From: an uncultured Candidatus Saccharibacteria bacterium
GTDB lineage: Bacteria; Patescibacteriota; Minisyncoccia; Minisyncoccales; UBA10102
NCBI GenBank assembly: GCA_964359655.1
Contig: CAYHVI010000002.1
Location: 176 to 64,175, forward strand
Direction: 5' to 3'
Length of the DNA: 64,000 nucleotides
The notes under the pieces were generated by a model. It saw only the letters and a program-made list of their open reading frames with translations, did not search any database and had not been told where the DNA came from. The position numbers and the translations under genes are program-made. This document shows, one piece after another, positions 14,130-19,098 of this stretch. The number at the start of each line of letters is the position of its first letter. Position 1 is the first letter of the stretch.

Positions 14130-14155
14130 ACAGCCCCTCGACAAAGCTCGAGGCT
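14130..14155. terminator. Hairpin terminator after hsdS (T/A tracts on both sides)
   Basis: CAGCCCCTCGAcaaagcTCGAGGCTG flanked by an A-run and a T-run. Confidence 0.7.
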
Positions 14156-14187
14156 GTTTTTTTTGAACAGTTTTATCTTCTAAGTTC

Positions 14188-15549
14188 CTATTTTGCCTGA
14201 TTTTCTATCATTTCCTCAACTTTTCGCTTCGCGGTTTCTAGTAATTCCTTTGCCTTTTTGCGCGACTCGTGAGATTGCCGCACAAGCTCGGCGATTCTCT
14301 GTTGTTTTTCCCTCGGCAAAATTGGAATCAGAACTTTTTTAATATCTTTATAACTAATGTTTGTTTGAACTCCTCCTGTTCCGATTTGCGCTAACTGGTA
14401 ATCTCCTACGATAGAATTTAGCAGAAACATCAGATAGTTTTCGTCAATTTCTTTTGGTTTAAATCTTAATATCCTTTGGTTAATACTACATCTAGGAATA
14501 TCGCTTGGAATTAGAGCTGACATGCCAATAGTTCCTGACATCGACAAAACAATATCGTCTGGTCTCGCAGTGTCCTTTGGCGATAACAAATAATCTCTTT
14601 CTGATAGATATACCGTGTCGCCCAGATCTAAAGACCCTCTTTTAATGTTATTTATCCTGATCAATGGGATACCGTGTTCTTGATAGTTTTCGCTTTTGAA
14701 CGGAAACCCCGTAGAATAATTTGCTACAAAGTTTTCTAGTGGCTTCGAGTTTTGCGATTTGAGTTTTGAGATTAATTTATCGTATTTCAGCTGAAAGTAT
14801 TCGGCGTCCATTCGATTCGCAGATTGAACATCCGAAAGATTCACAACATTATACAGGTCATCATTCAACTCAAAATCCTTGAGTCCTAATTCCTCCAAAA
14901 GCACCCCCTCCGCTTGAGAATACAATGTTTTTGAGTTTTGAAATTCTCGCCACGATCCATTTGATAATTCTGCTATTTTTTCTTGGGCTGACCGCGGAAG
15001 AATTGCTATTTTGATTTGCTTCAATTCCTCTGCATTAACATTCGCTTGATTAACTGCTCGCCTCGCAAATTTTCGTATTTGCTTTAACCCATACGCCGAA
15101 TTCAGAAAAATATTGAGATAATCAGGTAAAATATCTCCATCTAGTTTTGTCTGCATTCTTATCAAATAGGAAGCAAAAACCGATTCTAAATTTTCCAATT
15201 TATAAATACCCGTTCTGCCAACAAATTCTTCTGAATTCACCCTGTTAAATAGCACATCATTTTTCTTCAGCTGAAACTCTTTGAAAATTGTAGTCGGAAT
15301 ATCTGCGAATCGAACCTCGTCATCAAAAAGAAAACTATGGTTTATGTCATTCATCTTGAAAATCGGATATCCTATTTTTTCGTCATTCATTGCTTGAGAT
15401 ATTCCGTATTGGCACAAACTCAAAGCATCACCTATTGGTTGCCATTTCCTTTTGGAGAAATCAATAAAATACTCTGGCTGATAATACTCTGCATCCAGCC
15501 GTAAAGCTCCCTCAAGTTGCGATTTTTGGATTATTGAATAGGTAATCAT
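14188..15549 (-). CDS. hsdS: Type I restriction-modification specificity subunit
   Basis: MITYSIIQKSQLEGALRLDAEYYQPEYF. There are two target-recognition halves, each followed by a conserved helical region (second half AEYFQLKYDKL). Confidence 0.88.
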   Translation of the reverse strand: MITYSIIQKSQLEGALRLDAEYYQPEYFIDFSKRKWQPIGDALSLCQYGISQAMNDEKIGYPIFKMNDINHSFLFDDEVRFADIPTTIFKEFQLKKNDVLFNRVNSEEFVGRTGIYKLENLESVFASYLIRMQTKLDGDILPDYLNIFLNSAYGLKQIRKFARRAVNQANVNAEELKQIKIAILPRSAQEKIAELSNGSWREFQNSKTLYSQAEGVLLEELGLKDFELNDDLYNVVNLSDVQSANRMDAEYFQLKYDKLISKLKSQNSKPLENFVANYSTGFPFKSENYQEHGIPLIRINNIKRGSLDLGDTVYLSERDYLLSPKDTARPDDIVLSMSGTIGMSALIPSDIPRCSINQRILRFKPKEIDENYLMFLLNSIVGDYQLAQIGTGGVQTNISYKDIKKVLIPILPREKQQRIAELVRQSHESRKKAKELLETAKRKVEEMIENQAK

Positions 15550-15550
15550 T

Positions 15551-16381
15551 TCATGCGGATAGAATACTACTGCCGCTACTGCCCTGCTCACAACTGGGGC
15601 ATAGGTTAGAAGAAAGCACAGAAACCGACGTTATATCCTCCTTGTATCGTTTCCCGCACCTCCCACAAATCCTCTCACCCAGACTTGAAAACATGCCAAC
15701 ACCATTACCAATTCCGAGCGAAATAGTTGAGCCTGGTAAACCCGACACTCTAAGTCCTTCGCCGAATACTTGCGGCTGATCCCCCTTTAATTCTTTTACG
15801 CTTTTTTCTAACTCTTTTATTCGATTTTTTAGACGTTCTTTATCTTTATCTTCTCTAGCTTGAAGCAATTCTCTTTTATTCTTCAGGAGTTCCTCGATAT
15901 AAGATTTTAAAACATCTTGATAAATGCTCACTGTTTCTTTAACTTTTCTTAGTGCTGGCTCAATATCAACCCAATCCTCTACTCCCGATCTAATATTAAA
16001 CTCAAGAGCACTAAGGTGTCTGTCTACCTCTTTTAGACTTTCTATTTTGTTTTGTTGCTTAGATTTCTGAAATTCTCTTATCCATCCACGCAACTTTACA
16101 ATTTGCTGATTAATTGCCTCCAAGTTTCTCAGAGCAGATCTTCCCTTCTTTTCCAATAAAGAGTCTCCTCGTATTCGATCCCAATCATCCTTGATAAAAA
16201 TTCCGGCAATACCAGTAAGTATGGAAGCAAAAATCGCCAAAGAATTTGCCAGAGCCTCATCCTTTACGTTAAAAGAACCATACAAACCGAAAGCGGCAAC
16301 CACTATTGGTAAAATCGATCCCGGAAAAAACACAAGACTAAGAAACTCTTTCCATTTTTGAAAAAATCCTTTTTTATCCAT
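15551..16381 (-). CDS. Unknown protein embedded in the RM operon: 2 TM segments, long coiled coil, C-terminal zinc ribbon
   Basis: Start MDKKGFFQKWKEF overlaps the hsdM stop by 8 nt. The stop lies 1 nt before the hsdS ATG. Coiled coil includes ELLKNKRELLQAREDKDKERLKNRIKELEKSVKELK. C-terminus is CGRCGKRY...CPSCEQ. Confidence 0.6.
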   Translation of the reverse strand: MDKKGFFQKWKEFLSLVFFPGSILPIVVAAFGLYGSFNVKDEALANSLAIFASILTGIAGIFIKDDWDRIRGDSLLEKKGRSALRNLEAINQQIVKLRGWIREFQKSKQQNKIESLKEVDRHLSALEFNIRSGVEDWVDIEPALRKVKETVSIYQDVLKSYIEELLKNKRELLQAREDKDKERLKNRIKELEKSVKELKGDQPQVFGEGLRVSGLPGSTISLGIGNGVGMFSSLGERICGRCGKRYKEDITSVSVLSSNLCPSCEQGSSGSSILSA

Positions 16382-18335
16382 GAAAATTGAAGTTGTGTTC
16401 TTTTGCGAATTTAGTGAAGGCGGCCGCGATTTCGTCCAAGTCGTGGTCGAGGACTTTGCGGCCTTTATCGCTGTGCACATAGTTTCCCTTCGTGTCTTTC
16501 TTGTACACATAATCTCCCGAACTGTCTTTACCCGACTTTTTGGATACTGCCATAAAAATAGGGTAGTCTTTCAAAGGCTTTTCGTTTTTGTTCCATTTTT
16601 GGAGGAATAAGACGCTGGTTTTTGTGCCGGTATGTGGCTTAAATGTATTGCCGTGCAAACCGATTACCGCAAGAATACGAGCTTTATCAAAAAGCCATTC
16701 ACGGATATATTGCATACTCGTATTGTTCAACACGCCTTGCGGCAAAACAATCGCCATTCTTCCGCCGGGGCGAATCATATCGAGCGTGCGCTCAATAAAA
16801 AGAATATGACGCTCTACGTTGTTTCGCAATTTTCCGCCGTCTTTGCGCGCGAGTTCGTACTGGCGCAAAAGCGCATGGTCGGGGTTTTCTCCGGCAAATG
16901 GCGGATTGGTAAGAAGAATATCAAAATTAAGATGGCGATACGTAAGCTGGTTTTCTCTACTTTCGGTCGAATCATTGCTTTCCGTGAGGAGGCGCTTGAG
17001 TTCAACTCGCGCCTCTTCGCTTTCTATTCCCTGCCAATCTCTTGCATCTAAGGAATCACGTTTAAAAATGTGGTGTTTACCGTCTCCCGCGATAAGCATT
17101 AAGGCTTGGGAAATCCGGCGCATATTATCGTCAAAATCAATTCCGAAAAGATATTTTGCGGCATATTCTTTTTTGGCGGAGTCCGTGCGCAAATAGCGCT
17201 CCCACACATGATACATTGCGTGCAATAAAAATCCGCCGGATCCGCAGGCAGGATCAATAATATATTCACTGTCTTTGGGGTTGAGCATTTGAACGCACAT
17301 TTTAACAACATGCCGAGGCGTAAAGTATTGGCCCTTCTTTCCTTTTGATACCTCGCCGATAAGATGCTCAAACGCATTGTCGACAATTTCAAGCTCGCCC
17401 TGCCCGATTTCAAATAACCGAATATTTTCCAGAAATGCCGCGCAAATGCTAAGACGCGCGGGAGAAAGCCGGATTCGGTCTGATGATTCAAATATATCCG
17501 GCCATTCGCTAATGGCGTTGCGGAAAAGCTCATCGTTTATGACTTGATATGTTTTCTCGGGGTCTCGATATTTTCTGAAAAGTACTTCCTCTCCCTCCCT
17601 GCGCTCTCGAGCAATCTTTTCATCGTAGAGCTTTGCGAAAATGATTTTGAAGATTTCCTCAAATACATTGGCGCCAGAGCCCGCGAGCGCAAGTTCCTCC
17701 ATATGCTTTACAATTTCAACAAAGTCGAATCTTGGATTCAATCCTGTCCATGTCCTTTTTACTTCAAACAAATCATCTATTGTCTGATCTTCTTTAGGAA
17801 TATCACTCAAAGAATCTTCAAACTCTTTTGGATATGGCCGGTATAGCACTATCTTTTCTTTTCCGTTGGACCATACACCCATAAGAGAGCCCTCGGCGGA
17901 TAAATAGCTTTTGAGTTGCTCAATTCCTTTTCTCTCGGTAGGGCTTTTTACTTCGATAATGATGTACGGAGTAATCTTGTCTTTTGCGTATACAATGATA
18001 TCTGCGGCTTTGGCGTGAATCTCGCGGCCGAAGTGAACGCTCTTTTCTGTATCAATCCTTTCGAGAGAATATTTATAGTGAGTTTTGAGTTTGTTGAGCC
18101 AAAGCTGGCGGATAATTTCTTCTGGCCTTCCCTGTTGTTTGGTTTCATCGAATACAAAACGTTGTTTGCCCGACTTCAGGTCGCTGATATAAAAGCGGCC
18201 TCGTTCTTCTTCGGTAATTTCGAGAGCCTCGCCAAAATCGATATCCGCGAACTCTTTGAGGCCGTAGTTCATTTCTGGATCGCGAAAAATCTTATCGATG
18301 ACTTCTTTTACCCTATTTGGCTTTTTTGTTGGCAT
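16374..18335 (-). CDS. hsdM: Type I RM N6-adenine DNA methyltransferase subunit with an extra N-terminal PD-(D/E)xK-like (HsdR-N-type) domain
   Basis: 653 aa with an AdoMet motif DPACGSGGFL and a catalytic NPPF (LLTNPPFAGE). The N-terminal ~190 aa read EEIIRQLWLNKL...AADIIVYAKDKITPYIIIEVKSP...QLKSYL. Confidence 0.85.
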   Translation of the reverse strand: MPTKKPNRVKEVIDKIFRDPEMNYGLKEFADIDFGEALEITEEERGRFYISDLKSGKQRFVFDETKQQGRPEEIIRQLWLNKLKTHYKYSLERIDTEKSVHFGREIHAKAADIIVYAKDKITPYIIIEVKSPTERKGIEQLKSYLSAEGSLMGVWSNGKEKIVLYRPYPKEFEDSLSDIPKEDQTIDDLFEVKRTWTGLNPRFDFVEIVKHMEELALAGSGANVFEEIFKIIFAKLYDEKIARERREGEEVLFRKYRDPEKTYQVINDELFRNAISEWPDIFESSDRIRLSPARLSICAAFLENIRLFEIGQGELEIVDNAFEHLIGEVSKGKKGQYFTPRHVVKMCVQMLNPKDSEYIIDPACGSGGFLLHAMYHVWERYLRTDSAKKEYAAKYLFGIDFDDNMRRISQALMLIAGDGKHHIFKRDSLDARDWQGIESEEARVELKRLLTESNDSTESRENQLTYRHLNFDILLTNPPFAGENPDHALLRQYELARKDGGKLRNNVERHILFIERTLDMIRPGGRMAIVLPQGVLNNTSMQYIREWLFDKARILAVIGLHGNTFKPHTGTKTSVLFLQKWNKNEKPLKDYPIFMAVSKKSGKDSSGDYVYKKDTKGNYVHSDKGRKVLDHDLDEIAAAFTKFAKEHNFNFHG

Positions 18336-18360
18336 ACTTGTAGTGAGCGTATCGAACCTA

Positions 18361-19002
18361 CTACTTTATTGTTTTCCAATCGCCGTTTTTGAATACGCAA
18401 AGCACCTTTCCCAATAATCGCATTTCCTCCGTAAACGGGATAACGTTATACGCTGGATTTTCTGGTTTGAGATAAACATACGGCGGAGTGTCGTCTGATA
18501 TAAACCGCTTGATCGTTGCTTCGTCTTGAATCTGCGCGTGCACCACATCCCCCGAAGAAAATTCTTTTCTCTGTTCGATCAACACAACATCTTCACTGTC
18601 TATTCCAGCGTTTATCATTGAGTCCCCAGAGATTTTTAACATATAGACTTGCCCCTTCAACCTTGCTAGTCCCTCTTGGCTTGGCAGTGTTTCCCACTCT
18701 CCTGAAATCTCGATTGCCTCCATAGGAGAACCTGCGCTAGTAATCCCTAGAAACGGAGCAAGACGAGGACTTCCGAGAACCTCGTATGCCAAAGGCATTA
18801 AAACTAACCCCCTTGCCCCCTCATTGCGTCGAATCATGCCTTTGTGCGCAAGCTGCTGAAGATAATCAATCACCGATTGATTAGAAACAACATGTAATGC
18901 CTCTCGCATCTCCTCAAAAGTCGGAGGATAACCAGTCTCCTTGATATAGGTATAAATAACTTTCAGAAGCTCTTTTTGTCTTTGCGTAATAGGCTTCTGC
19001 AT
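18361..19002 (-). CDS. lexA: LexA-like repressor (wHTH plus S24 peptidase)
   Basis: N-terminus QRQKELLKVIYTYIKETGYPPTFEEMREAL. S24 domain with GDSM (Ser) and TIKRF (Lys). Confidence 0.85.
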   Translation of the reverse strand: MQKPITQRQKELLKVIYTYIKETGYPPTFEEMREALHVVSNQSVIDYLQQLAHKGMIRRNEGARGLVLMPLAYEVLGSPRLAPFLGITSAGSPMEAIEISGEWETLPSQEGLARLKGQVYMLKISGDSMINAGIDSEDVVLIEQRKEFSSGDVVHAQIQDEATIKRFISDDTPPYVYLKPENPAYNVIPFTEEMRLLGKVLCVFKNGDWKTIK

Positions 19003-19098
19003 ATGTATATAGTGTACCCGACTATTTCTTCTGGAGTCAACCCAAAGTTTTCCACAATGATGGGTCTGGAGTTTTTTGTACCTTGTTGAGGTTTTCCA

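Follow-up and report, generated by a model that had tools for sequence, protein, structure and literature searches.

The fusion of a nuclease to a methylase within a restriction-modification (R-M) enzyme is not new. It is the defining layout of those Type IIB enzymes that are made up of an RM subunit and an S subunit, and it has been known since BcgI, the RM subunit of which has approximately 637 amino acids. In BcgI the two subunits are present in a ratio of two RM to one S (PMC3874165), and enzymes of the Type IIB RM + S group have an EcoKI-like methyltransferase (MTase) together with a lone C-terminal helix that bundles with the S subunit (PMC11997821). In BsaXI (PDB 8w0p, 8w2p and 8w2q), a PD-(D/E)xK nuclease, a helical connector and a gamma-class N6-adenine MTase are joined in one RM chain, the S subunit is separate and HsdS-like, and there is no motor; a C-terminal 'paddle' of this RM chain also contributes to cleavage (PMC11997821). 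Here we describe a gene of related layout, hereafter RM, in 64,000 nucleotides of DNA from an uncultured Candidatus Saccharibacteria bacterium (GenBank assembly GCA_964359655.1, contig CAYHVI010000002.1, positions 176 to 64,175), a stretch that we refer to as the window. Elsewhere RM has been annotated as 'HsdM' or 'N-6 DNA methylase', and its homologues also as 'type I restriction enzyme M protein'. Labels of this kind make the locus look like an orphan methylase without hsdR. The evidence presented below suggests that RM is probably a subunit of a two-component, motor-less R-M enzyme of the BcgI/BsaXI design (Type IIB, RM + S).

The RM chain begins with a nuclease, which a helical connector joins to a gamma-class N6-adenine MTase, and it ends in a lone predicted helix. 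The gene and its parts are as follows, with the basis for each in parentheses (AF2, AlphaFold2):

16374..18335, minus strand: RM subunit gene, 653 amino acids (open reading frame list, Pfam, PADLOC, PDB sequence match, AF2 model)
17796..18125, minus strand: PD-(D/E)xK nuclease domain, residues 71-180 (Pfam HSDR_N_2)
18045-18047, minus strand: predicted catalytic codon E97 (alignment to BsaXI E73)
18000-18002, minus strand: predicted catalytic codon D112 (alignment to BsaXI D90)
17952-17954, minus strand: predicted catalytic codon E128 (alignment to BsaXI E105)
17946-17948, minus strand: predicted catalytic codon K130 (alignment to BsaXI K107)
17904-17918, minus strand: Q140 and Y144 of a QxxxY motif (family alignment)
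16398..17387, minus strand: N6-adenine DNA MTase domain, residues 317-646 (PF02384 N6_Mtase, E 3e-37)
17229-17255, minus strand: MTase motif I, DPACGSGGF, residues 361-369 (sequence; invariant in the family alignment)
16896-16907, minus strand: MTase motif IV, NPPF, residues 477-480, C-terminal to motif I (sequence; invariant in the family alignment)
16398-16439, minus strand: predicted C-terminal helix of RM, residues 633-646 (AF2 model)

The Pfam model HSDR_N_2 (PF13588) covers residues 71-180 of RM over its entire length (positions 1-110 of 110), with an E value of 1e-20 and a score of 74.3 bits against a cut-off of 25. The strength of this match is far beyond chance, and the N-terminal nuclease-like domain is therefore real. 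Moreover, the usual HsdM chains in the PDB have between 445 and 544 amino acids (one has 638), and it is because of its N-terminal module, which spans residues 1 to approximately 185, that RM is longer than an ordinary HsdM. No HsdM_N Pfam domain is reported in RM at E <= 0.1. A preliminary description of this DNA, which was made from the sequence alone, had read RM as an over-long HsdM with an N-terminal domain of the HsdR-N type, and the full-length HSDR_N_2 match that lies ahead of N6_Mtase bears out this reading. The peptide quoted in that description is present in the RM translation, where it spans residues 72-145, and the region that it placed at residues 60-170 could be located as well, except that this region starts at 17826 (and runs to 18158), so that the start given as 17825 was one base off. 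The D...E-x-K arrangement that had been pointed out corresponds to D112 and E128-V-K130, and it is extended by E97 on the upstream side and by Q140xxxY144 on the downstream side.

Structure prediction and fold searches place the domain in the same class. The AF2 models have predicted local distance difference test (pLDDT) scores of 85.2 for full-length RM and 90.1 for the N-terminal domain alone. The latter model contains a helix at residues 71-85, strands at 94-102, 105-116 (with D112) and 123-129 (with E128), a helix at 138-148 (with Q140 and Y144) and a strand at 152-156, and this predicted order is that of the classical alpha-beta-beta-beta-alpha-beta core of PD-(D/E)xK nucleases. When the N-terminal model was compared with the PDB using Foldseek, the best match was BsaXI, the others being 3ijm (restriction-endonuclease-like), Cas4, a fragment of HsdR, BpuSI and DrdV; all of the matches are PD-(D/E)xK proteins. 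With the full-length model, BsaXI chains occupied the first three places (E values of 5e-27 to 3e-23 over approximately 670 columns) and structures of Type I HsdM all ranked lower; BpuSI and DrdV are among the fold matches of the RM models. The sequence comparisons agree with this. RM.BsaXI (8w0p) is the best PDB sequence match of RM (118 bits), with the N-terminal domain included in the match, and a profile constructed from 76 relatives of the N-terminal domain found the BsaXI N terminus as the sole significant PDB sequence (E = 4.3e-7), with the same residues aligned.

In the HMMER alignment of the two N-terminal domains, E97, D112, E128 and K130 of RM correspond to E73, D90, E105 and K107 of BsaXI, the four positions at which alanine substitutions abolish cleavage by BsaXI according to the cryo-EM study of that enzyme (PMC11997821). 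The tetrad is invariant in all 121 of the close homologues that we aligned, and 121 of 129 representatives of clusters at <=50% identity retain it. Residues E73, R76, Q140, L141 and Y144 of RM are likewise near-invariant in the homologue alignments, and we see in Q140, L141 and Y144 a likeness to the QxxxY motif known from nucleases of the RecB family and from HsdR. Among 120 close homologues the nuclease domain (mean identity 78%) equals the MTase domain (80%) in its degree of conservation. The near-invariance of the E-D-ExK and QxxxY residues over more than 250 sequences favours catalysis. Thus, judged by its fold class and its conserved residues, RM most likely has a DNA-cutting domain in intact form at its N terminus. 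The preliminary description had looked to a match with PD-(D/E)xK folds and to conservation of the catalytic residues among homologues to decide the matter; Pfam, Foldseek and the family profile all match such folds, and the residues are conserved in close and in distant homologues alike. As for what the domain might supply, which that description gave as cleavage or DNA-end recognition, the conserved catalytic residues and the match to BsaXI support cleavage, and nothing we found supports DNA-end recognition.

The same evidence bears on a different explanation, namely that RM serves as the M subunit of an ordinary Type I enzyme whose HsdR is encoded elsewhere, and that the N-terminal domain of RM is non-catalytic or auxiliary (having a role in docking, DNA binding or DNA-end recognition). 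RM and its partner do share with the HsdM2-HsdS1 core of Type I enzymes (EcoKI, StySJI and EcoR124I) the fold and motifs of the MTase, an S subunit with two target-recognition domains, and the adjacency of M and S; the MTase core resembles the HsdM proteins of EcoKI and StySJI, PADLOC ranks a 'Type I methyltransferase' model first, the homologues have Type I names, and the visible part of the genome is only 64 kb. However, HsdM of Type I enzymes has no nuclease domain and relies on HsdR for both ATP-driven translocation and cleavage, whereas here the nuclease is fused to M, its E-D-ExK and QxxxY residues are essentially invariant, and an HsdM_N domain is not reported. Furthermore, the relatives of the N-terminal domain (ten long ones were scanned) are never found on helicase chains, and single-chain fusions of RM and S exist in the family. 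Given also the results of the search for hsdR that follow, we regard a Type I M subunit of this sort as very improbable.

No hsdR was found by Pfam among the ten largest other open reading frames of the window (496-1074 amino acids), which encode DnaE, a P-type ATPase, a ClpB-like ATPase, PheT, GyrB, ThrRS, CysRS, GatB and two proteins with no Pfam match. Among 19 large flanking open reading frames in 80 related loci there was no linked HsdR save in one (L082), where the HsdR is part of a separate and complete type I system; phmmer searches with the L082 HsdR found nothing further in the related loci. In another locus (L059), an independent and unrelated Type ISP enzyme was detected by Pfam on the other strand. 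The absence of hsdR noted in the preliminary description therefore holds for the window, as far as its ten largest other open reading frames are concerned, and for linked genes in the related loci.

RM is encoded within a four-gene unit on the minus strand that extends from a promoter to a terminator and comprises lexA, RM, an accessory gene that we call X, and S. The remaining elements of this unit are:

19011..19040, minus strand: lexA promoter, sigma-70-like, with a -35 element TTGACT, an 18-nt spacer and a -10 element TACACT (promoter scan)
19014..19035, minus strand: operator-like palindrome in the spacer of the lexA promoter, window copy TCCAGAAGAAATAGTCGGGTAC (upstream alignment)
18361..19002, minus strand: lexA-like repressor gene, 213 amino acids, first in the operon (PF01726, E 7e-17; PF00717, E 4e-24)
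15551..16381, minus strand: accessory gene X, 276 amino acids from the ATG at 16381 (start by alignment with a 48%-identical homologue from locus L003)
14188..15549, minus strand: S subunit gene, 453 amino acids from the ATG at 15549, with two target-recognition domains (Pfam Methylase_S)
14136..14153, minus strand: terminator-like hairpin and T-run directly after the S stop codon (sequence scan)

The S protein contains two Methylase_S stretches (Pfam, E = 7e-18) and matches the PADLOC model Specificity_I (E = 3e-50); in a comparison of cassettes its identity is only 39-51%, as against 76-78% for RM, and its translation probably begins at 15549 rather than at the GTG at 15591. The LexA-like protein combines the winged-helix DNA-binding domain of LexA with a peptidase domain of the S24 type, and the A-G cleavage site, the serine of the GDSM motif and the lysine K165 are present. 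In the window, lexA and RM are separated by 25 nt. In the protein encoded by gene X, two hydrophobic segments and a long coiled coil are combined with a Zn-ribbon-like CxxC...CxxC arrangement at the C terminus. Homologues that are 48% identical occur in two other loci (L003 and L017), and searches of the X protein with Pfam, NCBIfam and PADLOC gave only weak coiled-coil matches and no described family. Note that the mechanically called open reading frame of X, with 319 amino acids, overlaps the 3' end of RM by 137 nt (16374..16510); alignment with homologues points to the ATG at 16381 as the actual start, in which case X overlaps the RM stop codon by 8 nt. The promoter of mraZ comes after the terminator-like hairpin, and the hairpin marks the end of the lexA-RM-X-S unit.

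With these genes in view, the locus can be compared with the described enzymes. It shares with those of the BcgI type (BcgI, BaeI, BveI, Hso63250II and HpyUM), as the literature describes them, the gene pair, the layout in which nuclease, helical connector and MTase follow one another, and the EcoKI-like MTase; the AF2 model also places a single helix at the C terminus, where one is described for that group. Unlike BcgI as described, the locus has an S of full size, an accessory gene between RM and S, and lexA as its leading gene, and for none of the characterised BcgI-type enzymes has a lexA operon or an accessory gene of this kind been reported. BsaXI has the closest structures, yet its RM of 916 amino acids has a 'knob' and a C-terminal 'paddle', whereas RM of the window, with 653 amino acids, has a single terminal helix. 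Single-chain Type IIB and IIG enzymes (AloI, CjeI, PpiI and TstI; BpuSI, MmeI and DrdV) also have a PD-(D/E)xK domain followed by a gamma-class MTase, but in the window the specificity function resides on a separate polypeptide. Unrelated genes between the genes for R-M subunits are known from Type I loci as restriction-linked open reading frames, examples being PrrC in EcoprrI and the rlo genes of Campylobacter. The RM family resembles these loci in that accessory or defence genes are inserted in the slot between RM and S; gene X of the window matches no described family.

Homologues of RM are numerous, and the combination of HSDR_N_2 with N6_Mtase is a very common architecture. A search at E <= 1e-10 returned 7,629 homologues, of which the best 120 were described with respect to architecture and identity; all of these are approximately 650 amino acids long, are 73-81% identical to RM, have HSDR_N_2 and N6_Mtase, and come from many lineages of the candidate phyla radiation (CPR, or Patescibacteria). 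Species-representative genomes contain 596 relatives, in CPR, Nitrospira, Elusimicrobia, Proteobacteria, Cyanobacteria, Firmicutes, Bacteroidota and Campylobacter. When residues 1-215 were compared with 1.84 billion cluster representatives there were 555 matches, and ten long ones were scanned: all ten have HSDR_N_2 and N6_Mtase, two of them (P0181 and P0233) with a C-terminally fused Methylase_S, and none is a helicase-type HsdR. We analysed gene neighbourhoods in the 80 best loci, where RM is usually followed by S, sometimes with one to three genes in between, and where two loci (L066 and L074) have single-chain RM-S fusions. The slot between RM and S is hypervariable: the window and most CPR cassettes have a gene there, and many loci have S directly after RM. 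Elsewhere the slot holds genes for AAA_15/AAA_21 ATPases, DUF3800, Trypsin_2 (Trypco2 in another cassette), RnlA-like, ORF6N, YhcG/DUF1016, RhuM and DUF6119 proteins. Since the middle gene is hypervariable and often absent, the conserved core consists of RM and S. The family as a whole suggests that the design in which a fused RM works with an S is widespread.

One branch of the family is organised differently. In Proteobacteria (L026-L029, L032, L033 and L037; for example L037 7995..17580), RM has approximately 930 amino acids and is 47% identical to that of the window, and there are variable inserts after RM and S, which in L027 include a DarT gene and a macro-domain gene. Further open reading frames of approximately 211, 663-671 and 508 amino acids lie downstream in L027, L028, L033 and L037. 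In L037, the only locus scanned in this respect, these correspond to a weak Mrr_N-like match, DndD (above the NCBIfam cut-off) and a DndE/HerA-like ATPase. The proteobacterial branch may thus represent a larger, uncharacterised methylation-linked system, and the presence of the DndD- and DndE/HerA-like ATPases means that some branches of the family may belong to larger systems. Genes for such ATPases are not found in the operon of the window.

The existence of such a branch, and of genes in the RM-S slot, is relevant to the idea that RM is the effector or modification module of a larger system like MADS, with a nuclease that acts only together with accessory proteins, which here would be the product of gene X. 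MADS recognises a bipartite site; its MAD2 protein has the full-length architecture of RM, its MAD5 protein is the S subunit, and other genes lie between M and S, much as a gene separates RM from S in the window and in the majority of CPR cassettes. Consistent with this resemblance, RM matches the NCBIfam model MAD2 (299 bits, residues 66-624), S matches MAD5 (147 bits), and the PADLOC models mad2 and mad5 match as well. In MADS, mad2-4 and mad6-8 are all needed for defence, and cells survive the deletion of mad5 (S) only if mad2 or mad3 is deleted too; the ATPases downstream in the proteobacterial branch would likewise fit a larger assembly. However, the scores fall far under the curated cut-offs (299 against 720 bits for MAD2 and 147 against 400 for MAD5), the other six mad genes are not in the four-gene operon of the window, which contains no kinase, ATPase or other mad gene and has a terminator directly after S, and the gene between RM and S is hypervariable and absent in many loci. 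On the basis of the cut-offs and the missing mad genes we rejected membership of MADS itself, and we consider it unlikely that RM is a module of a system of that kind.

If RM and S do form an enzyme of the BcgI/BsaXI design, its stoichiometry, cleavage geometry and nuclease activity can be proposed by analogy. Two RM chains would assemble on one S by way of the RM C-terminal helix, as in BcgI and BsaXI, and the two target-recognition domains of S would read a bipartite site. On host DNA the MTase domains would use S-adenosylmethionine to methylate one adenine in each half-site. On unmodified DNA the N-terminal PD-(D/E)xK domains, tethered by the helical connector, would cleave a fixed distance away from the site, with no ATP-driven translocation. 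Cleavage would probably occur to either side of the site and would probably depend on more than a single enzyme complex.

Several points weigh against this reading. RM and BsaXI are only approximately 23% identical, and the knob and paddle of BsaXI are lacking here. The curated models differ, in that the best PADLOC match is 'Type I methyltransferase' (548 bits, full-length) and the best NCBIfam match is MAD2 of MADS, below its cut-off. RM and S may not always suffice, because the fused MADS relative needs six further genes and because the proteobacterial branch has DndD- and DndE/HerA-like ATPases. The window covers only part of the genome, and an hsdR gene could be located elsewhere in it. 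Finally, the conservation of RM above that of DnaE and its placement in a lexA operon, both of which are described below, are atypical for a plain defence enzyme.

Once the fused and apparently intact nuclease is recognised, the locus appears to be a complete and probably active restriction system. To our knowledge, CPR bacteria largely lack CRISPR, and a highly conserved Type IIB-like enzyme may therefore rank among their chief defences against foreign DNA. The many natural variants of S that occur on a near-constant RM chassis could, moreover, be of use in finding or engineering enzymes that cleave to either side of the sequence they recognise.

More unusual than the fusion of nuclease and methylase is the lexA context in which it is found. 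The layout lexA-RM-(variable)-S recurs across CPR genomes with wholly different flanking genes. A metagenome scan with the LexA protein of the window gave 80 loci, 77 of which include downstream sequence, and in 67 of the 77 a member of the RM family lies directly downstream of lexA on the same strand, mostly with a gap of 1-27 nt. We observed lexA and R-M genes as co-operonic in the window (14136..19040, minus strand) and in L001-L014, L017, L019, L020, L022 and L087-L166. The ten remaining loci lack the RM family; in the eight of these that were inspected, other R-M genes occupy the same place, namely a nuclease-like N6_Mtase with a short S, an N6_N4 MTase with TdeIII, two MTases with an HNH/AlwI-like restriction endonuclease, or Eco57I-type MTases. 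The link between lexA and R-M genes thus looks general, the RM family being present in 67 of 77 loci and other R-M genes in most of the other ten. We had entertained the idea that LexA is a regulator private to cassettes with the RM family; this idea is weakened by the approximately 13% of related lexA genes that mostly carry other R-M genes at this position.

The lexA promoter is conserved as well. In an alignment of 16 lexA upstream regions, a palindrome with the consensus ACCCGAC-N6-GTCGGGT fills the spacer between the -35 and -10 elements, and this putative operator is likely to be bound by LexA; in the window copy the left arm is degenerate. A scan with a position weight matrix, which was carried out to define the regulon, found no palindrome outside lexA promoters in the window or in 86 loci (approximately 1.3 Mb). 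A half-site with one mismatch in the RM coding region (16529-16539) was set aside as being within chance expectation.

Over all the cassettes compared, identity is 76-82% for RM, 58-68% for LexA and 39-58% for S. Between CPR lineages, RM of the window is 71-82% identical to its counterparts in L001, L003, L005, L008 and L010. Synonymous sites of RM are saturated, with a third-position identity of 0.22-0.37 at conserved codons of the four-fold type. Recent horizontal spread, which might have accounted for identities of 73-82% across CPR, was ruled out on this ground, and because these sites are saturated the similarity of RM reflects long-term purifying selection rather than recent transfer. 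When the window is compared with L001, RM is 78% identical, as opposed to 66% for DnaE and 67% for LexA. Conservation of RM above the level of DnaE is unusual for a restriction gene.

These observations raise the question of whether RM has a housekeeping role, as a LexA-controlled methylase-nuclease for DNA repair, the processing of taken-up DNA or epigenetic control in CPR. In favour of such a role are the co-operonic arrangement with lexA in 67 of 77 loci, the short gaps, the high amino acid identity in the face of saturated synonymous sites, and the fact that RM is more conserved than DnaE. On the other hand, the divergence of S (39-58%) fits restriction specificities that are diversifying, and classic defence-associated genes accumulate between RM and S. 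In addition, lexA genes that lack the RM family are followed by other unmistakable R-M systems (TdeIII, HNH/AlwI-like), which points to restriction as the function that is coupled to lexA. We therefore judge a housekeeping or SOS role of this kind to be improbable. A more tentative proposal, which goes beyond assigning RM and S to the BcgI/BsaXI design and which we regard as possible but doubtful, is that restriction has been wired to the SOS repressor in this CPR lineage, lexA and the R-M genes being transcribed together from the promoter with the conserved palindrome in its spacer, such that cleavage of LexA upon DNA damage or phage attack would raise restriction, with RM being ancient and under selection like that on a core gene rather than a sporadic, fast-evolving defence gene. 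If the linkage is regulatory, it would be an unusual form of restriction control. A comparative-genomics paper of 2017 on the SOS network of Patescibacteria may contain part of this already. Our literature search found no paper that combines CPR, R-M and LexA, and we do not claim the link as new.

Two further observations were made at the lexA loci. In one of them (L119 917..2803; also in L120, L121 and L139), lexA is followed by a second and unrelated methylase of approximately 628 amino acids, in which a PD-ExK-like pattern (PEF...IIVVECK) is present at the N terminus ahead of N6_Mtase; an S protein of 318 amino acids with two Methylase_S matches comes next. Judging from this pattern, the protein may be an independent fusion of a nuclease and a methylase. 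In addition, most loci have a DnaA-box-like element (TTATCCACAG or a close variant) approximately 10-15 nt upstream of the lexA -35 element; it was observed in the window (approximately 19050..19062, minus strand) and in L001, L008, L009, L011-L013, L017 and L022, and in the window it is inverted (TGTGGAAAA).

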